Shown in pieces: positions 226 through 17,939 of a stretch of 64,000 nucleotides of DNA (positions are counted from its first letter, which is position 1; each line of letters starts with the position of its first letter). The position numbers were made by a program, and so were the translations under genes. The stretch lies in the NCBI GenBank assembly GCA_030390025.1, contig CM059431.1, positions 116,996,001-117,060,000 of the forward strand, in the 5' to 3' direction. Below the pieces are notes generated by a model. The model saw nothing but the letters and a program-made list of their open reading frames with translations. It was not told the DNA's origin and ran no database searches. The stretch is from Squalus acanthias (Eukaryota).

Positions 226-3200
226 GTAGAACCCGCACAGTCCGTCTACCTGTGTCCGCTCAGCTATGATGCGTGGAAGCGACCCCTGGTGGAGATGGAG
301 GCAGAGAAGCAGAAGGGTAGTTATTTGTTGGACACGGGAGCTTCATGCACCGTGATTCATACGGATAGCCGCTTTGACTCACCGCTATCTACCAAGGTCC
401 CATACACATTAGCGGGGTTTACGGGAAAAGAGCAGGCTGGCGCGTTCTCCATTCCGCTCTCCATTCATTTAGGAGCACTCCACATCACGTGGAAGTGCAT
501 ACTGATGAAATGGCAAGAGGGGGGTGGGAGAGGCATCCTCGGATCAGATCTCCTATCGGAGCACGGGATCCTCGTGGACCTTAGGAATCACTGTCTCTGG
601 GGAGCTAAGGGTGGAAAAGGCAAGGTAGTGGCAATCCCGGGGAAGGAAGGTAAAGGGGCCCTGTGTACCATGAAGTCATCCGGAGGCTACGACCTCGGGC
701 TTATGGTCGCGGATATCCCAACGGACATGCAGACGTACGTGTCAGATAATATGCACGCGTTTGCAACCCACAAACACGATTGTGGGAGGGTTACCGGGTT
801 TGAGGTCAGCGTAAACGGGGACACCATGACCCGGCCCCAAAAGCAGTATAACTTCCCCAAAGAAGCAGAACCCGACATGGAGACAGCAATGTCCTCATTG
901 GTGCAGCAGGGCGTGTTGAGGCCAATAGCCACACACGTGAACTCCCCATTATGGCCGGTGAGAATGCCGGATAATTCGTGGAGGGCCACGGTGGACTACA
1001 GAGTCCTTAACAGTAACATTCCCGCCTGCGCGCCCACGGTAGCAGCAGTTGCTGACCTAATAGGGAGTATCCCAGCGTCCGCGACCACGTTCATGGTGCT
1101 GGATATCTCAAACGGTTTTTGGTCCATCCTGCTGCGGCGAGAGGACCAGTACAAGTTTGCCTTTACTTTTAAAGGACAACAGTACACATGGAACTGTTTG
1201 CCACAGGGTTTCCACAACAGCCCCAGTATTTTCCATCAGTGTATGGCAGGAAGTTTAAAGGAGTTTAGTCAGCCCAATCAGATAGTGCAGTACGTGGATG
1301 ATTTGCTCCTGTTCACGGACTCAAGGGAGGAGCATGGACCACTGCTAGCCGAGTTATTGGAGCTGCTAGCGAGAAAGGGTTTTAAAGTAAACCCTAAGAA
1401 AGCACGCATCGGTCAGCAGGAAGTAAAATTCCTGGGTCTGACCATTCGCGCTGGGGAAAGAGCCATAGATAAGGCTAGGAGGGAGTCGGTGCAGGAGTTA
1501 CCGATTCCCAACACGATAACGGGTGTGAGGTCCTTTCTGGGACTGACCGGTTACTGTCGAGACTTCATCGAGGTCTATGCGGCCACAGCAGCTCCGCTGC
1601 TCCGACTGCTCCATAAGGGAGTGGAGTGGTCTTGGGACGAGGGTTGCCAGGCAGCATTCGAGAAGTTAAAAAGGGATTTGCAGACCGCGCCAGCTTTAGG
1701 GGCCATAGATGGGGGGAAGGAGTTTTTCCTGGAGGTAGCTGCCAGCGGAGACAGCTTGAGCGGCGTGCTGCTCCAAGAGCGTCACGGCAAGCTGAGGCCG
1801 GTTGTCTATTCGACCAGGGTGTTAACGGATGTGGAGAGGAGTTTTACCAACTGCGAAAGGCATCTTTTTGCCACGCATTGGGCTGTGAAAAGATCAGCGC
1901 TCTTCACAGGGCTCTCTCCCATCACTCTCCTCACCCATCACACACCAACTAAGATGCTTCTAGATGGGAGGATTAAGGATGGGACCGTAAGCAGCGCTCG
2001 CATTGCGCGCTGGACCCTTCTCCTTTCCCAGATGGATCTTAGAGTTAAAGGTCTTTGCGAGCCCAGGCTTGCGGCCAACTTGGTATACCCCGGAACAGCC
2101 CACCGGTGTTCGGTAGAAGGGGTGTGGGAGGTCAACATAGGTTTGATGGCCGGGATACATCCCACAGGTCGCGAGCTTTATGTTGATGGTTGCAGCACAG
2201 TGTCCGCTGGCGAACGACTCACAGGGTGTGGAGTTTATGACCCTGCGGCAAACCTTGCCCTGGCGATTAAACTCCCCAGCACCATGAGCGCGCAGCAGGC
2301 TGAGCTGTCTGCGGTGGCGTACGTAGTGAACCACCCAGAGATCTTCCCAACCCCATACACGATTTTTTCGGACAGTATGGTTACGTGCAATTCGTGTACG
2401 GAATACCTGGCCATTTGGTCCCGCCGTGGTTACACCTCCGCGGACGGGCGACCTTTAACGGTGAAGCCCTTGCTGGAAAAGATCCTAGCAGCAGTGGGGG
2501 AGGAAGGGGAGATTTTCATCCATAAGATGAAAGCTCACTCCTCCACAGAGCCCCGTGGGGAGGGCAACCAGCAGGCGGATGCACTAGCCAGGGAGGGTGC
2601 CCGTAATGGCATTTTCTGGGACCCCTATGGACCCGGACCCGTGGCAGCGATCCAAGGCAGGGAAGGGAATCCCGGGAACACCAGGGTAGCACTGCCTCTA
2701 GACCTTAAGACCGTCCAGAACCAGGATCCCGCCCTAAAAGCAGTTCTCAGAACGATTACTGAGGGCAAGCAGGTAGAGGGCCCGTACAGTACGGCAACCC
2801 TCTCCGTTAAAGAAGGCATGCTGTTCCGCGAGGAACAGTGGGTTGTGCCGCAGCAGCACAGGAGGGAATTCCTCCAGTTGGGTCATGAGCGGCCGGGGGC
2901 AGGGCACCCCGGGCCCGAGGTTACCTGGTAATGGGTAGAGCAGGCGGGATGGTGGCCGGGACTCAGGGAGCAGATCCGCGAGTTCTGTGCAAACTGTCTC
3001 GTGTGCGCTGCAAACAACCCAGACCCCCAGAAAAGGAAAGTGCACATGGGGCACATCAGGAGGGTGGAGGGACCTTGGCCGTCGATACAGATCGATTACA
3101 TAGGGCCCCTGCCCACCACCCAGGGAGGCTACAAATACTGCCTCGTCTTGATGGATGTGTTTTCCAAATGGGTAGAAGCCTTCCCCTGTAGAACAGCTAC

Positions 3201-3579
3201 GGCACTGGGTACTGCTAAGATCTTGGTCCGGGAAGTGTTCTCGCGGTGGGGACTCCCCCGTTTCGTGGAGTCAGACCAAGGGAGTCATTTCACCGGCCAG
3301 GTGATGCAGAACACCCTCATGCTTTTGGGCATTGAAGGGAAGTGGCACGTAGCGCACAATCCCCAGTCATCCAGGATTGTTGAACGCATGAACCGGACCC
3401 TCAAGGAGAAGCTGAGGAAAGAGAGTATGAACTCGCCCCAAAAATGGGCGGAGGTTCTGCCTCTAGTCCTCATGGGAATCCGGGCCAGCCAGTCGAAGAG
3501 TACGGGGTATTCCCCGTACGAGGTGATGACTGGGAGAATCATGCAAACCCCCACCCATGTACTAGCCCCGGTGCTCACT
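226..3579 (+). pseudogene. pol: Pol part 1: aspartic protease, RT, degenerate RNase H (tether), RNase H, integrase zinc finger and catalytic core
   Basis: Protease LLDTGAS/ILGSDLL. RT LPQGFHNSP and YVDD (1291-1302). Tether FFLEVAAS..GVLLQ..RPVVYS. RNase H YVDG..SAQQAEL..FSDS..KAHS..GNQQADALA. Integrase HHCC and IDYIGP/SDQGSHF/VERMNRTLK. In-frame TAA at 2929-2931, after which the same frame continues (WVEQAGWWPGL..FCANCLVC). Confidence 0.95.
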
Positions 3580-6026
3580 TGTAAGGGGGTTCGCATGGCT
3601 CTGTGTTTAGCCTGGGTGCTAGTGCGGGGTTAGGCCTTGTTGCCTGTTCTGGTCTCCAGCCAGCCTGGTAGCACTAGACACCTGTGAGTGGTTCGACCCA
3701 CTCGCCCTTACGGTTCTGACACTGGACTTAGGTGCGAGAGCAATAATGCACAGAAAACTCAGGTAGACTCGGTTGAATAGTACGAAATGGAAAATCTTTA
3801 TTGCATATTGTTCAAGATTACGAAATACATGTCATAAGCACAGATTAATGACAGTACAAGCTTACATTCATTTAGGAAACTAGGTTTAGGGAAACGAGGA
3901 GCACACGACACATCGTAAAAGGGGACACACATTATAATTATCCTTAAAACAAAAACCCTCCCCTATCAATACCTGTCCTAATCTAGATCTGTAGGATTGA
4001 GGCTCATGCTCACCACTCGTGATAACTCGAAGAATTCCTAAACGCTGCTCGGATGTTTTCGCCACAGCACCTGAATATTCACGTGTTGATCAGTGTTCTC
4101 TGTACCCCACTTGTTTACTCGCTTTGCTCCGGCTAGCAGGCTGGACCATCTACTGTCATGAAGATCTGTGTTGACCTCGGAACTCTGATAAAACTCAAAG
4201 AAGAGTCTTCCTGTGCCCGACACCAGTTAGCCGGTAGAATTCAAAGAAGAGTCTTTCTGGATCGACACCAGTTCGATAAAATTCGAAGAAAAGTCTTCCT
4301 GCGTCAGTTCGTGCAGTAACCTATAGAGTTCAAAAATGGTCTATATATTTTCGGGCGCGGTCGGGGTTTACTGACCGCGGCGGCACATGCAGTCTTCTTC
4401 TTCTTCTTCTTGTCTTGTTTCATCTCGTCGGGCCTTCGTGTCCCTACACCGTCTACCGACCCTCGGGATGGTGTACCCGCTTACCGGCCTTCGCAGCCCA
4501 GCTCTTCACAGATCTTCGCGGCAAGCCACGAGGTTGACTCCTGGCAGATCAGCGGACCAAGAGCTCAGTAGGCCGCAAACGAGAGCCAGGGGTCGAATCA
4601 AGAGAGAGATGGACGTTTGTTTACTACAGTTATAGTACTGTAATTCTTTATCTCCCGCCCAATCTTAATGTTCATCTTTTGTCATGTTTTGGCGCTCAAA
4701 CTTCTTGTATGGGGTGGTACTTGTCGTTAATGGGTTTCGGTGATACTTGTAACTGTCTGAGTACCCGTTAATATTTCTCCCCTTGTGGAACCGGCTAGGA
4801 GTCTCCCTGGAGGGGTTTTGGGGGCCTCCGAATTCTTGCTGTGAGTACCCGCGAACGGCTCTCTCATCGTAGAGCCGTGGGGAATTTGCGTATCAATGTC
4901 TTTGGATGGGCCCCTTGATTGCCCAGTACAATAGCTCTCATTTGTACATGGAAAACCCGATTCCAGCACTTATATTCCTTGCTTGGTTGTTAAAAATGCA
5001 AAACAATCTCGTCTTGTCTTATCTCAATATGCTGAGTCCTGTCCGATCTTGCTGAAATGTGTATTGAAACGCCATCTTGTCTGCCTACTGAAAGTCTAGA
5101 ACCTTCTGCCACGAGGCGTGGCGGCCATTTTACAGGCTGCTTGTGTCCGTTTTGAAACCTGACAGCATTTTGCTGAAATAAAGCTGTTTTTACGAAACTG
5201 TATGGGGGAAAAATTCACCTGCTTGCGCCTCCCGTTAGCGCCTTAAGAGGGCGCTAATGGGGCGTAAAGCAGCTAACGCCCGGGCGCAGCGCCGCCCACG
5301 CCTCCCGAAAAATTTAGTGGGAGGTTAGCGGCGGCGGCAGCCGGTAGCGCCCTGTGGCGCTGCGCCGCCGGCGATGACGTCATCGCCGTGCGCAGCGCCC
5401 CGCTCGCGCCCCGGCCGTGATCTTCAGTCGCGCCCCCTGATTTACCGCCAGACGCTATGTCCGACGGGTTCAGGGGGGCGTACGTGCGGCCGGGGCGGCG
5501 ATATTTAAAGGGGAGGTGGCAGGCGGCCATTTTTGTTGCTGGCCGCCTGCCAGCACCTGCCCCCGTTGCTGTCCCCGGCCCCCGTGAAGCCCCCCCACCG
5601 TGAAGTGCCGGCTGCGCTCCAAGAGCCCGGCACTTCTCTTGAGTGCCGGGCTCTTTTGCCGGCACTCCCGATCCCCGGGGGCCCAGCTGGGCCCCGGTTC
5701 GCGCTGCGCAAGGCCCCTCCCCTTTAAGAAGGGGAGGAAGGCCTGCAATACCGCGGCGCGACGTGCCGCAGCGCATGGCGCTGCGGCACGTAGCGCCAGG
5801 ATATTCACTCGCAGCGCCCCAAGAGGGATGCGGGGTGCTTCCAGTTGCGCCCCGCTTCCCTCTTGGGGCGCAACCACTGAAGTTCCGGCGCGGGGCCGCT
5901 AATTTTTTCGGGGCGCTAAAAGTCACGCCCCGGCGAGGTTAGCGCCCCAAATGGGGCGCGACTCAATTTTTACCCCTATGTCTCTATCTCGTTATTTCGA
6001 AATCGCGATAATTTGCGAATTCTACA
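3580..6026 (-). mobile_element. Solo LTR of a related ERV family, inserted antisense into integrase (contains a MITE)
   Basis: TG..CA termini and 4-bp TSD CACT (3576-3579/6027-6030). The reverse complement aligns by eye with the 10193-11895 LTR at both ends and internally. Removing it restores the frame PVLT-EVQLQEVKW. Confidence 0.92.
5204..5976. mobile_element. GC-rich non-autonomous Harbinger-type MITE, copy 1
   Basis: TIRs gggggaaaaatt / aatttttacccc and 3-bp TSD TAT; near-identical to 13425-14167. Confidence 0.88.
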
Positions 6027-6030
6027 CACT

Positions 6031-7167
6031 GAGGTACAGCTCCAAGAGGTGAAATGGGACAAGTTTTTCCAGACCCTCTTGGAGCGCCTGAAGCAGGTTT
6101 ACGAGCAGGCGGTTGGGAACATGGGAAGACAGCATCAGGGCAATCGCCTGTTGCTGGAACCCCGTAAGAAGCAGGAGTGGGAAGTCGGAGATCAGTTCAT
6201 GGTTAGGAACTATACCAGAGTAGGGAGTTTGGAACCACTGTATATGGAACCCTACAGTATTGTAGATAAGGCGAGTCCCATGGTGTACGCCGTAAAGGTA
6301 CCTCGGCGCACGAAATGGTTCCACATTAACCAGTGCAAGTTGTATAAGCCGGGTGCACAGGGGCCAATCACAGGGGCCAAAACTGCGAGTGGGGACTCAC
6401 AGCCCAGGATAGGACAGCAGGGCACACAGACCGGTAAAGCAGCCTGCTTGAGGGGAGAGGACATTCTAGAAAAGTGTAGGATCTTTTCTTGGTGTTGGGA
6501 TTCAGATGAGGAAGAGCTCGAGGAGCTCGACCAAGGTAGTGACCCGATCGGAGAGGTGCTGGGGTCAGAGGACGAAAGTTTCGTCCTCGACTCAAGCTCA
6601 GGGGAGATAGGGGCTGCGAGTGGAGATCCACACAGGGTGGAATCGAAAACTGCAGATCCCGAGCCCAGGGGGGCGGAGCTAGGGGAGACGGAGCCAGCGG
6701 CTGTGGTAGGACCACAGGCCGTGACGGTGGAAGTCTCGGTACCCGGTCCGTCGGCCCTGGAAGTCTTGCCCTTGGGGGAGGTAGGGATTGCGAGTGGAGG
6801 ACCACATACTGGGCCAAGTAGGGTGGAACCAGAAACTGCAAATCCCGAGTTCAGGGGGGCGGAGCCAGGGGAGACGGAGCCAGCGGCTGTGGTAGGACCA
6901 CAGGCCGTGACGGTGGAAGTCTTGGTTCCTGGTCCGTCGGCCCTGGAAATCTTGCCCAATGTAGCCCTCCGTAGGTCAAGTCGGACACCCCAGCCCAGGA
7001 AGCCGTGGTCAAGTCCCCCGTACGCCCCCAGGCGTAAGTTCAAGGTCAAGGCAGCCCAGGGAGATCCCAGTCCCAGCGAAGCGGTGACAGGCTGCAGCAG
7101 ATCAAAGGAAGGGGTCAGTGCCCTCCCACCACTGGGAAAAGCTCATGGCAGCCTTCGCAGAATTTAG
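6031..7167 (+). pseudogene. pol: Pol part 2: integrase C-terminal (GPY/F-like) domain plus long acidic/proline-rich tail
   Basis: VGDQFMVR..LEPLYMEPYSIV..YAV..WFHINQCKLY, then a low-complexity tail with an internal duplication (6601-6774 / 6775-6957) and an LRRSSR motif. Confidence 0.88.
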
Positions 7168-7444
7168 GTAGGCCGCCCTGGGAACGGGCGGCGCTGTACA
7201 GTTTAAGTTTAGGATAAGTTTATAAGTTTAAGTTTAAGTTTTGTAAGTTTGGTAAGTTTGTAGTTTAATTTTAAAAGTAAATGGTAAAATGATGGGAGTT
7301 AGAGATAGGAATAGTTAAAGTCTATCCAGCATACATGTCGTTATACGTGAGACGAGGTCAAGGGACCCGCTCACCCTTCACAAAAGCCAGAGACTCTTGG
7401 GAGGCTGGCTACATCATTTTATCTGATCACAGGAACCAGGAAAG

Positions 7445-9796
7445 ATGGAAAGGATTCTGATAGTGCTCGCAACGATCGGATATGGATTGGCCTATCGGGG
7501 CCTCACCAAGGATGTCGTTGTGTTCGGTTGCTCCGGGGACACGGGCCCCATGGCGACGGATGGGACCGGGGAGCGAAAGGCTGAGGAGACCGCCACGTAT
7601 TTCCACAAGGGAAGGTGGCCGGGATGGCTGGGAACTAATTCAACGGAATACTCCAACGCATCCGGATTTGCCTACAAAGAGACCTCTTTACTGTGCCCCA
7701 GAGTGAGGATCATTGCACCCAGAATCAGCGTCACCGTCGGCAAAAGGATTTGTTTGACATGCAATGGGAAGGTCCCATTGAGCCGATGGTGGTGGTTACG
7801 GAAATTAAGCAAGACTATGAGAAATTTCTCGGTTGAGTGGGAGCGATTGGGTAACAACACCCATCGGACAATTACGGGGACTAACGGACAATTGAAAGTC
7901 TGTTGGGACAAATGGTGGGAACCGGATGAGGGAATATATGTTTGTATGTGGGGATCGAAGTACGCTTGCCCCAAGGGTATATCCATATTCTTCGTACACC
8001 AGTGGCAGGATAACGGAAAAGGGATGAGGTGGGATGTCAGCACCAAGGGGTGCGGAGCTCCATTCTCCCCGATCCCGGTAAACGCCACTGAACTCATCAC
8101 GCGCCCACGCAAGGCTCCGCCCACGATTCCGGTGGTTTTGGCTCAGAAGGAAGGGTGCCCTAAAACCACTAAGGGGCCCGGGAATGGTTTGATACTGGTC
8201 CCAACAGACCAGATACTATTTCAAGGGGTACATTACGCGGTGGCTTCGGTGATTCTAAATCTCACCGAGGTGCGTTTACCAGAGTGGTGCCCCAAAGAGA
8301 CGGAACAATTGTACCAGGTCCTGTTGACAAACATGTTCAGACAATTCTACGAGTTTGATTTTGCGGAGATTGACAAAACAAGCTTGTACACCACACCACA
8401 CGAAGTTTTGGGTCAGGTGGGGAGACAAAGAAGGGGTATTGTGAACGATATGTTCACTGCCTTTAATACAGGAACATCTGTGGTCAACGCTCTAGACAAC
8501 GTGGAGCCGCAGAACCAGATCAATGGTTTAAAAACACAATTAAAAAGCATCCTCACAAGCGAAAAAAAGGTAGTAGGGTCTGAGTTACATGAGGACCAGG
8601 CCATGACACTACACTTAAAGGAGATTATAGCAGAGCTGGAGAAGCATGCGAGACCGGTAAATGCCCTGATCAGGGAAGATCGGAACGCATCTGATCAAGC
8701 TTCGCAGAACGAGGTGTGCGTACTATACGGGGCGTGGTTACTGGGCGAGGGCCGCAGTAATTTGGAGGATTTAAAACAAGGTTTGGTCCCGTCCTGGATA
8801 AGTAACAAACACCTGCAGGCGCTCCACCCTTTTGAGAACGCATTAAGCCCGTGCCAGCTCAGGCTAGCCTCAGAGGCATAACCAAGCCCCGTGGACTGCG
8901 GACGGTCAAATCATACCATCATGGGTATAGTACTACGTATGCCGGTGTTGGGCGACACGGCAAAGCCCGCCCCGGTGTATCGGGTGGAGAACATTGGTGT
9001 CATTCAGGGGGGAGCCCACATTCGCTACGCAGCGGTCCCACCTTACGTCATCCGCTGGGAGCAAACGATGACAGGTACCGACCTATCGGGTTGTCGTGGC
9101 CGGGGAGCACACATAATCCTGTGTCCCCAGCACTTGAATGCCTTTTTAACACCACAATGTGGGTTCAGAACAGCTGACGCCAAGCCCATGAATTGCACCA
9201 TGGAGGCAATGACACAAGATCATGTGCCTCCGCAGGTGGCATACATAGGGGGTGGAACATATTGCGTTACCACTGCAGCGCAACACTACCAGCATGGAAA
9301 CCACAGCCGGTGTCCGGTGAGTGACAGCAGTTTCTGTTTTAAACCCAGGGCTGAAGTTCAAGTGGCACAACAGCGAATTGTCCTGATCCCTGAACCATCC
9401 ACTGTTCACCTTACAGTAAAAGAGAATTTCACCGACTTGCAGCGATTCGTCGCGCATTTCGGATACATCATTCCCCCTCTCGCTGAACACCTCACCAAGC
9501 TTTTGAAAGCCGTCGCGGTATCACAAAAACATTTTTACACCCTGGAACAGAAAACAGTAGAAATAGGGACAGAAATTTTGGACATAGTAATCCCACCGTG
9601 GTGGGATCTGTTCACCAATATTGAAGTTCCTCCATGGATCAGGATAGCCTCCCACATTTTGGTTGTGTGCCAAGTTATAATTGTAGTGTACCTATTGGTC
9701 GTGCACTGCAAGAGAGGCAAACGCCTCACAAAGCAGGAGAACACAGGGGAGTGGAGAGAACGTTACGTGCGCGTGAACGAGGAAAGCGCCGCGTAA
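7445..9796 (+). pseudogene. env: Envelope glycoprotein (class I fusogen, F-protein-like) with N-terminal Ig-like domain; one in-frame stop
   Basis: Signal peptide MERILIVLATIGYGLA, N-glycosylation sequons, furin site RQRR (8423-8434), fusion-peptide/heptad region, Cys-rich region, and TM segment ILVVCQVIIVVYLLVV followed by KRGKR. ORFs 7445-8881 and 8891-9796 are in the same frame, separated by TAA at 8879-8881. Confidence 0.9.
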
Positions 9797-10192
9797 ACGG
9801 CCAGGATGACGCCGCTCCATTTTACCATGTGTGTTTTGTAATTGATTGTTTAGTTATGTAGATGTGTAACTAAGTTTGGAACTTTGTATTTTAAAAGAGT
9901 TGTTTTGATTATTTTTTTCTTGTATAATAAAAACATGCATATACAGTTGGTGTGAGAGGCATCGGCCTGTTGCACCTGGAAGGCGTATACGCAATGTAAG
10001 TTCAAAGGCAATGCTGCCTACGGTTTGTCCAAGTTTAAACAATGTAATTTTCCCTGGGAAATGAGGACGGCATGGAGGCCATAGATAGTTTAAGTTAAGG
10101 GAATGTTTGGATGTGGAGAATCGGGATAATTTTGCTCACCACCACTTTTAATTGATACGATAAGCGGAGTTATTCGCATCAACAGGAGGGAC

Positions 10193-11895
10193 TGTAAAGT
10201 TTCGCAATTATCGCGATTCGAAATAACGAGAGAGAAGCAGATTCGTTTGATCAGTTTATTTAAACGAAATGCTGTCATGATTAAAAAGGACACAGAAGCC
10301 TGTAAAATGGCCACCGCGCATCGTGGCAGAAGCTTCCAGAATTACAGTGGGCAGACAAGATGGCGTTCGAATAAACATTTCAATATAAGACGGGATCATA
10401 CTCGATAAGCACTGATAAAGACAGGATGCAACCTGTTTGCATTTGTGACAATAGCAAAATATATGAGTGCTGGAATCGTTTTCCATGCACAAGTAAGGAC
10501 CATTGTACTGGGCAATCGAAGGCCCATCCAGACACATCAATACACAAATACCCCCATGGCTCTGCAATGAGAGAGCCATTCTCGGGTGATTAAACAAGTA
10601 TTCGGGGGCCCCCAAAACCCAGCCAGGGAGGCTCCTAGCCGGTTCAACAATGAGGAAAACATTAACGGGTAGTTGGCCAGTTTCAGGTGCTACCGAATCC
10701 CGTTAAAGACAAGAATCGCCCCATGCTGGGAGTTTTGAGCGCCAATATTTCACAAAGGACAAACATTAAGATTTGGGCGGGAGATAGGGGAACACAGCAC
10801 TATAACTATAGTGAACAAATGTCCATCGGTCTCTTATCTCTGCTGACTCTTGACTCGGGCTGAACTCTTATTCTCCTATTCTGATCCTCGGGTATCGCTC
10901 TGCTGGACGAGCAGCCTTCTGTGTTTCTCTGGACTCTGTTGACTCTGGACTTTTGCTGCACTGGACGGTTATTCGAATGTTGGGTGGAGCTCAATCGGAA
11001 CGAGCCGCCTCGACAAAGGCAAGTGACCGGGTGCACCATCCCGAGAGTCGGTAAACGGTGTCTGGACCCGAAGGCCCAACAAGACAAGACGAAATGACAA
11101 GAAAAGAAGAAGAATCCACGTGCCACTGCGGTCAGTAAACCCCGACCGCACCCGAAAATATAAGACCCACTGCTTGAACTCTGCAGGTTATTGCACGAAC
11201 CGGTCAAAGACTCTTCTTTGAATTCTACCGACAACTGGTGTCGATACAGGAAGACTTTTCTTTGAGTTCTACAGCCGGGCCCGAGTTCTGTCGAGTTCTT
11301 CATGACAACGGGGAGCCCGGCCTGCTTGCCGCAGCAGCGAAGATAAACAAGTGGGGTACAGAGACCCCTCCAAACACGTGACAGTCAGGCGCTGCAGCGA
11401 AACGAGCCGAGTGCCTCACTTTAAAATTCTCCGAAGTATCACAAGTGGTGAGCATGTTTCCTGATCCTACAAATCTAGATGTAGTGTAGGTATTGATAGG
11501 GGAGGGTGGATTTATTAAGGATAAAGTATAATGTGTTCCCCTTTTTACGATGTGCCGTGCGTTCTTCATTACCATAGACCAAGCTTTATGAATGTATGTA
11601 TACTTGTACTCTCGTTAATTTGCGCCTATGACATGTACTTCATGATTTTGGACGCTATGCAATAAAGATTTCCATTTCGTACTATTCAACCAGGTCTATT
11701 TGAGTTTTTCTCTGCATTACTGCTCTCGCACCTAAGTCCAGTGTTAGAACCGTAAGGGCGAGTGGGTCGAACCACTCACAGGTGCTTATTGCAACAAGGC
11801 TGGCCGGAGACCAGAGCAAGCAATAGCATTAGGCAACGAAGGCCTAACCTCGCACCAGCACTGTCTGTGATACAAGCACGCCGAAACCCCTTACA
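10193..11895 (+). repeat. 3' LTR (1703 bp)
   Basis: Follows the polypurine tract; inverted termini TGTAA...TTACA; AATAAA at 11661-11666; homologous to the solo LTR at 3580-6026. Confidence 0.92.
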
Positions 11896-13390
11896 GATGG
11901 CACGTTCGAAGACGCTGTATTTAAGGGGGCCATGTCCCCTTTGGCTTTCACTTACATTTTGCTGCTCCTGAGTGCTGGTGGTTGCATACCTGACAGCACC
12001 GAGAACAAAGGCTGCTCCTCTTTCGACGATGACTCCCTCCATGTTCTTGTGGATGGAGTAAGAGGACGCAAGGAGGTGCTGTTCCCTTCTGATGGAAGGA
12101 GGAAGCCTCCTCAGCACACCAAGGCAGCCTGGCTGCAAATAGCTGAGGAGGTCAGTGCAAGGTCTATCTTTACACTCACCTGGTCCATTGTAGGAAGAGA
12201 TTCAATGATCTCCTGCGTTCAGCAAAAGTGAGTATAACAGCACACTTACCTTCATTCTGCTGTGCCTGTCTTCACATCCCCATCACTCTGTATTGCCAGC
12301 CCTACTCCTGCACAATCTAACTCACCCCAACATCCCTTGCACCGTCACCCTTCCCTCTCTCCCTCTGTACAGAATAACTTCCCCATCTTACTATGCACCC
12401 CTCACACCCACTCTCAATGTTATGCAATGACAACAACTAACAACTCACAAGGAACTTGGTAATGGGAACCCACTCCATCGTATTCTCCCTCTAAACATCT
12501 ATCCTATCCATTCTTTACACTCATTCCATCACTCTCGCTAAAACTGCACTTCTGTCCCTCATTGCAGGAAAAGAGAGCCTACAATAAGAGGGAGCCGGAG
12601 AGAACAGGAGGAGGACCACCATCCGTGGCACAGCTCACCCACGCTGAGGAGGCAGCTCTGGACATTGTTGGAGGTGCTGAGGAGCTTGAAGTGGGGGACG
12701 GAGAGACGGGCTCAGTCGAACAACCTGGTGACAGAATTATTTTCCAACCATCTGATTTGGCATTCATGAGTGACTCATATGGGATCTGGTGTTCATAGAA
12801 ATTGAATGCTCATCATGTGCACAATGCAACCTACAAATCACATGTCTAAATCAGGTCTTTAATCTCCCACAGAACCATCAAGAGCCCCCCTCTCTATTGC
12901 CCAGGAGGAAGAGCAGGAGGACTCCTCAGAGGATCCTCCAGCCTCTGAGGGAGTAGCGTCAGCAGAAATGAGTGCACCCTGCACCAGCACAGAGACGCAC
13001 ACCTCGGTGGGTCCAATGCGAGATAGAGTGGTGTTGTCACCTGGTGTCTCAGAGCTCACAAGTGAGCTAGAGCAGATGATGGAGACAGTGACAGCAGTGG
13101 AGAGTCCTCATCGGCGGCTGTAAGATGCTCCTAGCTTAGCTGAGCTACATGCAGACGCTGAGCCTGAGGGGCCATCCAGGAAAAGAGCAGTGCTGGAGAT
13201 TCAGGAGCAAGTGCAGGAGGCTCTGACTGGTTTAGCAACCACGGTGACTGCGAGTGTGCAAAGAATGGAGGAGTCCATCTAAAATATGAGCAGCGCCATG
13301 GTGCAGGCTCTGGCAAATGTAGGTCCCGCCATGGAAAGGATGGCAACCTCCAAGGCGGACATAAATCGCCAGACTCAGGAGAACATGATA
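11896..13390 (+). mobile_element. PIF/Harbinger fragment with degenerate 3-exon Myb/SANT-like gene; host of the ERV insertion
   Basis: FDDDSLHVLVDGVRGRKEVLFP..AWLQIAEEVS..RFNDL followed by GTGAGT; exon 2 EKRAYNKRE..RTGGGPP; frameshifts; homologous to 16079-17939. Confidence 0.8.
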
Positions 13391-13424
13391 ACACTTCTAA
13401 ATAGTTCGAGTCATAGAGTCATAT

Positions 13425-14167
13425 GGGGGAAAAATTCAGCTGCTTGCGCCTCCCGTTAGCGCCTTAAGAGGGCGCTAATGGGGCGTAAAGCAGCTAATGC
13501 CCGGGTGCAGCGCCGCCCACGCCTCCCGAAAAATTTAGTGGGAGGTTAGCGGCGGCGGCAGCCGGTAGCGCCCTGTGGCGCTGCGCCGCCGGCGATGACG
13601 TCATCGCCATGCGCAGCACCCCGCTCGCGCCCCGACCGTGATCTTCAGTCGCGCCCCCTGATTTACCGCCAGACGCTATGTCCGACGGGTTCAGGGAGGC
13701 GTACGTGCGGCCAGGGCGGCGATATTTAAAGGGGAGGTGGCAGGCGGCCATTTTTGTTGCTGGCCGCCTGCCAGCACCTGCCCCCGTTGCTGTCCCCGGC
13801 CCCCGTGAAGCCCCCCCACCGTGAAGTGCCGGCTGCGCTCCAAGAGCCCGGCACTTCTCTTGAGTGCCGGGCTCTTTTGCCGGCACTCCCGATCCCTGGG
13901 GGCCCAGCTGGGCCCCGGTTCGCGCTGCGCAGGGTCCCTCCCCTTTAAGAAGGGGAGGAAGGCCTGCAATACCGCGGCACGTAGCGCCAGGATATTCCCT
14001 CGCAGCGCCCCAAGAGGGATGCGGGGTGCTTCCAGTGGCGCCCCGCTTCCCTCTTGGGGCGCAACCACTGAAGTTCCGGCGCGGGGCCGCTAATTTTTTC
14101 GGGGCGCTAAAAGTCGCGCCCCGGCGAGGTTAGCGCCCCAAATGGGGCGCGACTCAATTTTTACCCC
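13425..14167. mobile_element. GC-rich MITE copy 2, in the 3' tail of a CR1 LINE
   Basis: Same TIRs and near-identical interior to 5204-5976, apart from one ~30-bp indel. Confidence 0.88.
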
Positions 14168-16078: not shown

Positions 16079-17939
16079 ATGGAGTCACACTGACAGAAGG
16101 CTGCGTCCAGATTCCCTGATGCCTCCCTCGAAGTGCTGGTCCAGGGAATCAGAGCATGCAGGGAGTTCCTATACCCTGCAGATAGGCGCAAAAGAGCAGC
16201 CAGAGACACCAAGAGGACATGGCTGGAGATCGCGGAGGAGGTCAGCAGTAGGGATGTCATAAGGTGGTCCTGGATCCAGTGCTGGAAAAGATTTAATGAT
16301 CTCATGAGGTCAGGAAAGGTGAGTGTAATGCCAAAATCAACTACATCCTGATGTGCGTGTCACCCCAACCCCATCACTCTGTCTTCCCAAGCATACTCCT
16401 GCACCTCAATCCTCACACCAACCTACCTTGCAAGGTGCACCCATCCCTTACTCTCTATCTGCCTACTCACATCCCCATCTATCTAACCACCACTGACACT
16501 CACCCTCATCCTAATGCAATCATAGGAAGTAACACCACAGAAGGAGGTCATTTGGCAATGTCACTCCACTCCCTCATAGTCACTCTCTACAGATGTAGCC
16601 TATCCATTCCTGACACTCATTCCACACTCTCACTCAAAGTTCTCTTCTTTCCCTCCTTGCAGGAGAGAGCCCAAAACAACAGGGAGAGGCAATGAACCGG
16701 AGGTGGCCCTCCAATTTTCACCAACTTGACTCCAGCAGAGGAGGAGGCCCTTGAAATCACTGGAGTTGCAGAGGTGCTGGCGGTGGGAGATGGAGAGAGG
16801 CAGACCTCCCAGCAGCCTGGTGACAGAATTAAATCTCATACTGCCACATGGCATACAACATCATGGTGACTTGATCATGGTCAGCAGCCAGTCAAATGCC
16901 ATCATGTGCATAATGGTAACATTACATATTCTTATCATAAGACTTCTAATTCATCTCTTTACTCTCCCACAGGTCCATCAAGTGTCACCCCCTACTGTTT
17001 AGCCAGAGGAGGAAGATGACTCCTCAGCGGAAGCTCCAATTTCTGCGGGTGCACCGTCACCAGACCCAAGTGCACCCAGCACCAGCGCAGATATGCACAC
17101 CTCGGTGGGTACAGCGAGTCATAATGTAGTGTTGTCACCTGGTGTCTCACAGATCACAAGTGAGCAAGAGCAGATGGTGGAGACAGGGACACCAGTGGAG
17201 AGTCCTTGCCGGAGGGTGCAGGACGCTCCCAGCTCTGCTCATGTTGCATGCAGATGCTGAACCTCGGGGGCCATTGAGAAAGAGGGTGATCTTGGAGGAG
17301 CAGCAACAAATGCGCGAGGCTCTGGCAGCTTTTGCAGCCGCGATGTGTGCAAATGTACAGAGAATGGAGGAGTCTATCTCCAACATGAGCACCACCATAT
17401 CACAGGCGATGGCGACTGTAGGCTCTTCCATGGAAAGGATGGCCACCTGCATGGAGCAGCTAATGCGCCAGTCAAATGAAAACATGCTTGCTGTGAACAA
17501 CAAATTGCAGACTCTTATTGAACTCATCTCTAGAAGGGATAGCAACATCGATTTGGGTGTTCATCGCCCCACAGATGTGCAGCAAGATGCTCTCCAGCTC
17601 CTTGCTAGCAGGGAAGTGCGGGTGGCTCATGAGAGGGATGATGGTGAGAGGGGACATGGAAGTGGGGGCTCCGCTCAAAGCATTCCCACTTCTCCCCCGT
17701 TGCCTCCCCCTCAGTCAGAGTCCCACATGCTTCCTCAGATCTCGATGGCCGAGTCTGCACAGTTGCAGAAGGAGCAGTCTTTGGCGGGGCCAACACAGGC
17801 TCCAAAACCCAGAGGGCGTCCGCCAAAAGTTTCTAAGCAGTCAGAGCAGGGAAATGAGCAGCCTGTCTCTACCACTGCTGAAGCCACAGAGGGTGCACCT
17901 CGTAGAAGCATTCAGAAAAGAAAAATGACAGAATCATAG
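16079..17939 (+). pseudogene. Harbinger Myb/SANT-like DNA-binding protein (exons ~16079-16318, 16663-16819, 16973-17939)
   Basis: RFPDASLEVLVQGI..TWLEIAEEVSS..QCWKRFNDLMRSGK; GT/AG boundaries; coiled-coil-like C-terminus; stops present. Confidence 0.82.

Follow-up and report, generated by a model that had tools for sequence, protein, structure and literature searches.

Fusogens of the F type generally need a separate attachment protein or attachment function. In gammaretroviruses, the surface subunit (SU) of the envelope protein (Env) is made up of a receptor-binding domain (RBD), a proline-rich region and a C-domain, and the RBD is a beta sandwich, e.g., in Friend murine leukemia virus. Among vertebrate endogenous retroviruses (ERVs), the accessible part of the lokiretrovirus study describes an env gene related to the F proteins of Mononegavirales, with the order signal peptide, F2-like segment, R-x-K-R, fusion peptide, coiled coil and anchor (PMC7947760). 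The paper leaves aside by what means an element with one F-type env recognizes its receptor (PMC7947760). Here we analyze an ERV in a stretch of 64,000 nucleotides from Squalus acanthias (GenBank assembly GCA_030390025.1, contig CM059431.1, forward strand, positions 116,996,001 to 117,060,000), hereafter called the window, the first letter of which is position 1. The body of its Env is predicted to be of the F type, and in front of this body residues 85-189 probably form an immunoglobulin (Ig)-like beta sandwich. We posit a class I F-type Env that carries a beta segment, a domain of the Ig superfamily (IgSF) type and a proline-rich tether, and in which the Ig-like domain probably serves as the receptor-binding part.

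The env gene occupies 7445..9796 on the plus strand, as do all of its parts named below, with 783 codons and a terminal stop in a single frame of the open reading frame (ORF) list; the full-length model of its product matches F proteins. The window copy is broken by an in-frame TAA at 8879..8881, where relatives read a residue. A putative signal peptide (residues 1-16; 7445..7492) is suggested by the hydrophobic N-terminus and by a helix at residues 2-14 of the model. It is followed by an N-terminal segment (residues 17-84; 7493..7696) with beta strands, Cys29, Cys84 and two N-x-S/T sequons, part of which packs on the Ig-like sandwich (VIA alignment; model range from about Env residue 31). The Ig-like domain itself (residues 85-189; 7697..8011) includes Cys106, Trp115-117 and D161-x-G-x-Y-x-Cys167 and closes with a G strand predicted for residues 180-189, and its own two sequons bring the number in residues 17-189 to four. 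Next comes the proline-rich tether (residues ~205-236; 8057..8152), which is recognized from the sequence, carries one sequon and is probably disordered, with a predicted local distance difference test score (pLDDT) below 50 for residues 206-236 in the AlphaFold2 full-length model. The first-pass annotation, made from the letters of the DNA, had reported Ig motif strings at Env residues 85-185 and a proline-rich linker after them, and both were found, the proline-rich stretch at residues ~206-231. The F2-like segment (residues 243-330; 8171..8434), at which the structural alignment to F starts, ends in the furin-type site R-Q-R-R (residues 327-330; 8423..8434), aligned as R-x-[KR]-R in relatives. 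The remainder, equivalent to F1 or the retroviral transmembrane subunit (8435..9796), comprises a fusion peptide, a helix at 332-444, a beta-rich head, a helix at 679-711, an anchor at ~731-760 and a short tail. A basic site thus stands before a fusion peptide, as R-Q-R-R is followed by a Gly/Ala/Ser/Thr-rich segment and the long heptad helix 332-444.

The hallmarks of the IgSF are found together in the Ig-like domain. Cys106 (nt 7760-7762) and Cys167 (nt 7943-7945) are 61 residues apart, within the spacing of ~55-75 residues between the B- and F-strand cysteines of the superfamily; Trp115-117 lie within 10-15 residues after Cys106, where the strand-C Trp is expected; and D161-E-G163-I-Y165-V-C167 reads as D-x-G-x-Y-x-C. 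The two cysteines presumably form a disulfide. Env as a whole contains 22 Cys and 20 Trp. In shuffles of the window Env, the strict pattern L-x-C...W...D-x-G-x-Y-x-C turned up in one of 100,000, a looser pattern in 217 of 100,000, figures that are generous because the pattern was picked after the sequence had been seen. The six-frame ORFs of the window with 90 or more amino acids comprise 21,605 residues, and in them the Ig-like site is the sole match to the loose pattern. The motif is not a trivial by-product of the Cys- and Trp-rich composition. Unusual features of the domain are the run of three Trp, the abundance of Trp in the E-F segment and the additional cysteines Cys103 (7751-7753), Cys153 (7901-7903) and Cys175 (7967-7969), which lie within the domain or adjoin it. 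These cysteines are kept in 10 of 13, 6 of 11 and 7 of 10 relatives, respectively, and may provide an extra disulfide.

The domain is shared by the copies of the element in its own genome. Env residues 1-478, searched in six frames against the host assembly (3.7 Gb), returned 9,159 first-look candidates. Of these, 89 were scored; all are 94-97% identical over the full query, many with open frames of 789 codons. Thirty loci, the best-scoring of at least 89 and including the window copy, were fetched. The env frame is uninterrupted in eight of them, while the others have stops or frameshifts, mostly in the C-terminal half. Presence of the domain in sister copies had been set beforehand as one point on which the Ig reading could fail, and the Ig-like region is kept without indels in 30 of 30 copies, which lie on many contigs. 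Cys103, Cys106, Cys167 and Cys175 do not vary among the 30; within the region there is a stop in three copies and a change of Trp117 in one. The ratio of nonsynonymous to synonymous differences (pN/pS; Nei-Gojobori sums over 435 pairs) is 0.15 for codons 85-185 and 0.13 for codons 1-478, so that most differences arose in lineages needing a working Env. The choice of best-scoring copies speaks against reading these values at face value, as it biases pN somewhat downward, but it cannot account for a seven-fold gap. Env, including the Ig-like domain, is under purifying selection. The element is a young, high-copy, retrovirus-like ERV, and its high copy number, the eight open env frames among 30 and the pN/pS of 0.13 would fit a spread by reinfection until recently.

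Relatives beyond this genome were found in skate (72-76% identity), sawshark, whale shark and catshark, and in metagenome/Logan records. A profile search of 1.84 billion representative proteins yielded 40 proteins at E ≤ 0.001. Full-length distant members come from bamboo shark (P0016, with the automatic UniRef name 'Ig-like domain-containing protein'), smooth-hound (P0014) and frogs (P0029 and P0042). A word-indexed search with P0029 added a third frog protein (P0061), and one with alignment A4 returned no new distant family members. In a 33-sequence alignment, Cys106 and Cys167 are invariant in all 14 relatives that have residues there. The 14 include the proteins from bamboo shark, smooth-hound and sawshark and two from frogs, which are 12-25% identical in this region. 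Trp115 and Trp117 are each kept in 8 of 10, Gly163 in 10 of 13 and Tyr165 in 6 of 13. A local hidden Markov model of the close group gave -5 to +3 bits on the distant N-termini, with P0029 the only one in register. The Ig-like module therefore predates the separation of the elasmobranch from the frog branch within the Env family, and a single old gain is the simplest reading, several gains being the alternative.

The description of the module as captured, as given in the first-pass annotation, did not hold in the sense of a recent event: the module is old and not a recent capture by this virus, since elements of elasmobranchs and frogs share it at ~20% identity, and no donor came to light. Against a host origin stands the lack of a recognizable IgSF donor among the 40 profile-search matches, although the own genome was not searched with the domain itself. 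These matches are Env relatives, Env fragments in host gene models, or unnamed short proteins left unchecked. Some public gene models fuse Env fragments to host genes (P0004, P0005, P0030, P0026), e.g., as 'Niban 1-like' and 'zinc finger protein ZFP2-like', both in sawshark, or with a cadherin-domain protein, and are probably annotation chimeras produced by ERV insertions. This presence of Env fragments in public annotations gives the finding a practical side.

Several sequence signals, each weak but in agreement with one another, point to an Ig domain. Pfam Ig_3 was the top or only match for the window Env (E 0.37-0.47; 11.4-11.8 bits) and its relatives P0002 (E 0.58), P0003 (E 0.0027; 18.6 bits) and P0011 (E 0.0085; 17.0 bits), all four matches running from profile position 2-7 to position 74 of 78. 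Weak sequence matches in the PDB (phmmer) were antibody light-chain V domains (VL) in 14 of 14 cases; the full-domain VL alignments pair Env 93-173 with chain residues 10-94 so that Cys106, Trp116 and Cys167 fall on their canonical counterparts. An hhalign comparison of six Env domains with 15 host Ig_3 exons gave a probability of 56% (P 1.1e-4) over 71 columns, with Env 85-168 on positions 1-72 of a 75-position profile. The score of 27.4 was reached by none of 300 column shuffles (mean 11.4, maximum 21.6), and the reversed alignment scores 13.4. Single N-termini behave likewise against the host Ig_3 profile, both for the window Env (P 3.7e-4; 0 of 150 shuffles reach the score) and for frog P0061 (probability 76%, P 2.3e-5; 0 of 150 shuffles), which lacks both cysteines.

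Predicted structures, of low confidence, are in line with an Ig-like fold. A model of the N-terminal part (residues 17-245; 13 sequences) has the expected strands at a poor mean pLDDT of 45.7, and all matches listed by Foldseek are V-type domains of antibodies, nanobodies or embigin (E 0.009-0.04), the single-domain matches having target-normalised TM-scores of 0.51-0.59 and root-mean-square deviations (rmsd) of 2.2-4.0. The full-length model adds the G strand at 180-189, with a per-block pLDDT of 48-75 over the Ig-like domain. The BFVD viral fold library contained nothing at E ≤ 0.001 for the N-terminal model. The best 10 ESM Atlas matches of residues 80-200 scored 0.90-0.92, nine of them with Ig families, and the 10 best family-bearing matches all belong to one family or clan; the same search with frog P0029 found Ig families in nine of the best 10 (scores 0.82-0.84), which we take as a lead only.

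Several results weigh against an Ig assignment. No Ig match exceeds its curated cut-off, the Ig_3 matches reaching 11-19 bits against a required 30, and relatives P0001, P0009, P0016, P0029 and P0042 have no Pfam Ig match at E ≤ 1. Profile searches of the PDB brought no gain: with alignment A3, one of seven weak matches was a single-chain variable antibody fragment (scFv), with A4 none was an Ig domain, and the best match of these searches was the heptad repeat 2 (HR2)/anchor region of a coronavirus spike (E 0.0022). About one third of shuffled proteins likewise reach ten same-clan Atlas matches. The hhalign comparison with 26 host antigen-receptor V-set exons was negative, 17 columns being aligned at P 0.041. 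By the same method, the single N-termini of P0029, P0042, P0014 and P0022 are not Ig-like (P 0.12-0.24), and that of P0016 is weakly so (P 0.011).

Because the curated Pfam cut-off was missed, we speak of an Ig-like domain that bears the hallmarks of the IgSF and do not assign it to a Pfam family. The first-pass claim of a true Ig domain thus retains moderate support. Profile comparison speaks for it in that Ig_3 was matched, and above shuffles by hhalign, and against it in that the curated threshold was missed and PDB profiles were of no help; on the structural side, models of low confidence match V-type Ig domains. Descent from a genuine IgSF domain is, on balance, what we favor. The domain appears nearer to the I-set/Ig_3 type than to antigen-receptor V-set domains, because the Ig_3 profile matches it better than the V-set exons do. 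V-set exons also form dense clusters in the host genome (150 scored matches, many of them within a few Mb of contig C29 and within C911, others on C13 and C75), which fits the multi-cluster antigen-receptor loci of cartilaginous fishes; the nearest relatives of Env likewise point to a host of this group.

The claim of an F-like fusogen body was borne out by the predicted fold. With the stop read through as X, the AlphaFold2 model of Env (33 sequences, mean pLDDT 61.7) matched 195 PDB chains at E ≤ 0.001 in Foldseek, and all matches listed are paramyxo- or pneumovirus F proteins, the best being 1ztm_C (human parainfluenza virus 3 (hPIV3) F; E 3.3e-8). Env 243-647 aligns to F from residues ~23-38 (73 in one match) through ~420-463 (VIA; range start 243-245), and with the postfusion F of respiratory syncytial virus (RSV) the match extends to ~712 in the Env model and ~517 in F. 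The rmsd of whole-chain fits is large in the top four matches (15-19 Å), as is to be expected from a monomer model with a mixture of pre- and postfusion features, and 5.5-6.5 Å over 260-300 residues in most matches. The model has the elements of the F fold, namely a head of three domains, heptad repeat A behind the fusion peptide and heptad repeat B ahead of the anchor. On the negative side, PF00523 gave no match at E ≤ 1 in the window Env (both halves and the read-through) or in the 22 relatives scanned, and no F protein appeared in the PDB sequence-profile searches. The body is F-type by its modeled fold, and the call rests on predicted structure since sequence alone fails to show F.

The Ig-like domain lies in an extension of this body. 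Env 17-242 is without a counterpart in F, because the F alignment begins directly behind the signal peptide of F itself. The lokiretrovirus supplement prints 23 consensus env genes, the starts of which were compared by eye and not computed. In 22 of these 23 the signal peptide leads directly into P-G-P-x-x-G-[IL], and R-x-K-R follows ~115-126 codons into the gene; three frog lokiretroviruses are among the 22, while the 23rd, Loki-Lch, has no gene start in the printed part (PMC7947760). By eye, the F2-like part of the window Env begins with P-G-P-x-x-G-[IL] as well (Env ~244-251). As the motif opens both the mature lokiretrovirus Env and this F2-like part, the extra ~225 residues appear to fill precisely the space from the signal peptide to the conserved F2-like start. 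That the Ig-like region is an N-terminal addition, as first suggested, is thus in agreement with its place in an extension absent from F proteins and, by eye, from 22 of the 23 published lokiretrovirus env genes.

The host range of the Env family also bears on its relation to lokiretroviruses. The family is present in proteins of whale shark and bamboo shark, both members of the Orectolobiformes. According to the accessible part of the study, the lokiretrovirus screen was based on reverse transcriptase (RT), and none of three Orectolobiformes genomes was positive (PMC7947760). Either the orectolobiform elements were missed by the RT screen, or their pol is not lokiretroviral and an F-type env is shared across lineages. 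A scan of IMG/VR with pol found no relative.

Taken together, we propose the following working of the protein. After removal of the signal peptide, Env would be cleaved at R-Q-R-R (327-330) into an outer SU-like subunit, consisting of the N-terminal segment, the Ig-like domain, the proline-rich tether and the F2-like segment, and an F1-like subunit with fusion peptide, heptad repeats and membrane anchor. The Ig-like head would bind a host receptor and the tether would relay the signal to the fusion core, one protein both attaching and triggering fusion. The head is a candidate receptor binder because F-type fusogens generally need an attachment function and no second glycoprotein gene was seen between integrase and env, the region downstream of env having been left unannotated. 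The head may owe its IgSF ancestry to capture from a host gene, and, if of the cell-adhesion type, it could pair with the molecule that its cellular ancestor naturally binds. A more far-reaching version, which we put forward tentatively and regard as somewhat doubtful in its entirety, is that elasmobranchs and anuran frogs harbor a lineage of vertebrate retrovirus-like elements not described before, in which a host cell-adhesion-type Ig domain, gained at the F2-like N-terminus, made an F-type fusogen a self-sufficient attach-and-fuse protein. The receptor would have been chosen by ligand mimicry, i.e., as the natural partner of the captured domain, the pol would possibly not be lokiretroviral, so that an F-type env moved between retroviral lineages, and the element would have reinfected its hosts until recently.

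Other explanations have to be weighed against a receptor-binding IgSF domain. The head might be a beta sandwich without IgSF ancestry, its Cys-Trp-Cys pattern convergent and nothing captured. This would suit the failure to pass any curated threshold, the negative PDB profile and V-set hhalign searches, the absence of a host donor among the 40 matches and the several distant relatives that are not detectably Ig-like, as well as the three consecutive Trp, the Trp-rich E-F segment and the extra Cys103, Cys153 and Cys175. Convergence would, however, have had to place a full D-x-G-x-Y-x-C in register with a B-strand Cys and a C-strand Trp, to draw only Ig V domains (14 of 14) in searches by sequence, and to align with Ig_3 over 72 of 75 profile positions at a score that no shuffle in 300 attained, with an independent match in frog P0061; we consider it unlikely but not negligible. 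The weak family scores are the sole point in favor of the stretch being no genuine part of Env, whether a motif arisen by chance, a chimera of the assembly or a host exon caught in this single copy. This is refuted by the 30 of 30 loci without indels, the proteins from skate, sawshark, whale shark and other sources, the pN/pS of 0.15 and the rarity of the motif in shuffles, and we give it practically no weight.

Were the Ig-like domain real, it could still act as an immune decoy or ligand, or as a shield against antibodies, with the F-like body doing the attaching; some pneumovirus F proteins have been reported to attach by themselves. Host-like IgSF features (Atlas, hhalign) and the four sequons in residues 17-189 would be in keeping with such a role. 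Many receptor-binding domains evolve faster than the rest of the protein, and here the domain is about as conserved as the fusion body and not faster (73% vs 78-80% identity in the skate relative). The N-terminal tip on a flexible tether is, on the other hand, the usual place of receptor-binding domains in class I fusion proteins, and purifying selection across proliferating copies fits a function in entry at least as well, so that we rate an immune or shielding role as rather improbable. Less probable again is that the extension serves mainly as a clamp or chaperone, keeping the F-like subunit prefusion without a specific ligand, with pH or proteolysis as the trigger. It is joined covalently to the F2-like segment, the counterpart of which lies on the prefusion head in F proteins, and evidence for any ligand is nil; yet a flexible, low-confidence proline-rich tether of ~30 residues would be an odd design for a clamp, and F proteins as well as the published lokiretrovirus Envs manage without such a piece. 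A receptor-binding Ig-like head therefore remains our preferred reading.

The window starts within the provirus, with gag and the 5' long terminal repeat (LTR) lying upstream of it. A pol ORF (289..2931, plus strand) encodes protease (PR), RT, an RNase H-like tether and RNase H, with Pfam matches to RVT_1 (1.2e-33), RT_RNaseH_2 (5.5e-19) and RNase_H (3.2e-18) and a weak match for the aspartyl protease. The N-terminal and core part of integrase (IN) follows at 3001..3633 (plus strand; ORF list), its frame stopping where repeat arm I3 starts at 3640. Foreign repeat DNA of ~2.4 kb (3634..6012, unstranded, boundaries approximate), recognized by repeat comparison, separates it from the C-terminal part of integrase and a long acidic/Pro-rich tail (6013..7167, plus strand), which has weak SH3_Tf2-1 and Integrase_p58_C matches. 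Within the foreign DNA, 3640-5141 repeats in inverted orientation (72-91%) the stretch 10294-11823, which lies downstream of env, and 5201-5976 repeats 13422-14167 in direct orientation (97-98%). The foreign DNA may represent another transposon, an LTR-related piece or a rearrangement. The domain order PR-RT-tether-RNase H-IN, followed by env, is that of a retrovirus-like ERV. Owing to the insertion in integrase and the one stop in env, the provirus copy in the window is dead twice over.

Some further observations concern this provirus and its surroundings. The acidic/Pro-rich tail behind the integrase C-terminal domain is unusually long, in an ORF of 384 amino acids, and contains a 138-nt tandem duplication (repeat D5; 6634-6771 and 6820-6957, 92%). 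Downstream of the provirus, direct repeats D2, D3, D6 and D7 link 12184-13387 with 16275-17486 (~4.09 kb apart, 71-79% identity), which points either to a segmental duplication of some age or to another element present twice. In four small public runs of unknown type, the summed contig depth over env (7296-9800) is several-fold above that over 6400-7150, contig depth being unable to rank parts of a gene.

The suspicion voiced from the start that the arrangement was undescribed is in line with the literature: the open-access publications searched yielded no account of an F-type retroviral Env with an Ig-like module at its N-terminus. The main text of the lokiretrovirus paper does not mention immunoglobulin, receptor, surface or N-terminal (PMC7947760), the main text of the errantivirus preprint does not mention immunoglobulin or Ig-like (bioRxiv 10.1101/2023.10.26.564294), and a 2026 review of ERV structures mentions neither Ig-like nor immunoglobulin. 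In their accessible parts, a preprint on anamniote Envs deals with gamma-type Env only, and the Ig-like domains in the zebrafish Env38 paper are those of CD4.

If our reading is true, an Ig-like head on a proline-rich tether would answer how an F-type Env without a partner attaches, and would exemplify the modular assembly of viral entry proteins from host adhesion-domain parts, in parallel to the RBD and hinge of gamma-type SU. The family also extends F-type Env elements to cartilaginous fishes, where the RT screen was lokiretrovirus-negative (0 of 3 Orectolobiformes), and raises the question of separate env and pol histories in these elements.

Compared with the F proteins of paramyxo- and pneumoviruses (hPIV3 F, 1ztm; RSV F, 3rki; Langya F, 8tve), Env shares the predicted fold over residues 243-647 (to ~712 for postfusion RSV F), the furin-type site followed by a long heptad helix, and the second helix and anchor at the C-terminus, whereas these proteins have nothing like Env 17-242 and sequence similarity is undetectable. 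The lokiretrovirus Env, as far as printed, differs in its early cleavage site (~115-126 codons in for 22 of 23 genes, by eye, against residues 327-330 here) and in a PF00523 match at E 2.2e-7, compared with none at E ≤ 1 here (PMC7947760). Errantiviruses likewise have an F-like Env on LTR retroelements, with a head and stalk predicted to resemble RSV F, but they are Ty3/gypsy elements of invertebrates, and their extra 'Domain A' is a C-terminal helix; the accessible part of that preprint states that there are no homologous intact ERVs in vertebrates (bioRxiv 10.1101/2023.10.26.564294).

The Ig-like domain shares with the cellular I-set/Ig_3 domains (PF13927, CL0011) the B-strand Cys, the C-strand Trp, D-x-G-x-Y-x-C, a match over 71 columns and a model resembling V/I-set folds, and it differs in its place far below the Pfam cut-off, its WWW run, its extra Cys and its occurrence in a viral glycoprotein. 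An N-terminal receptor-binding module on a class I fusogen is a familiar theme, of which the Ig-like version on an F-type Env would be a further variant. Gammaretroviral SU, with its N-terminal beta-sandwich RBD and proline-rich hinge, is the nearest parallel to the way in which the module would act; there the partner is a gamma-type transmembrane subunit and here an F-type fusion subunit, and we claim no sequence relation between the two.

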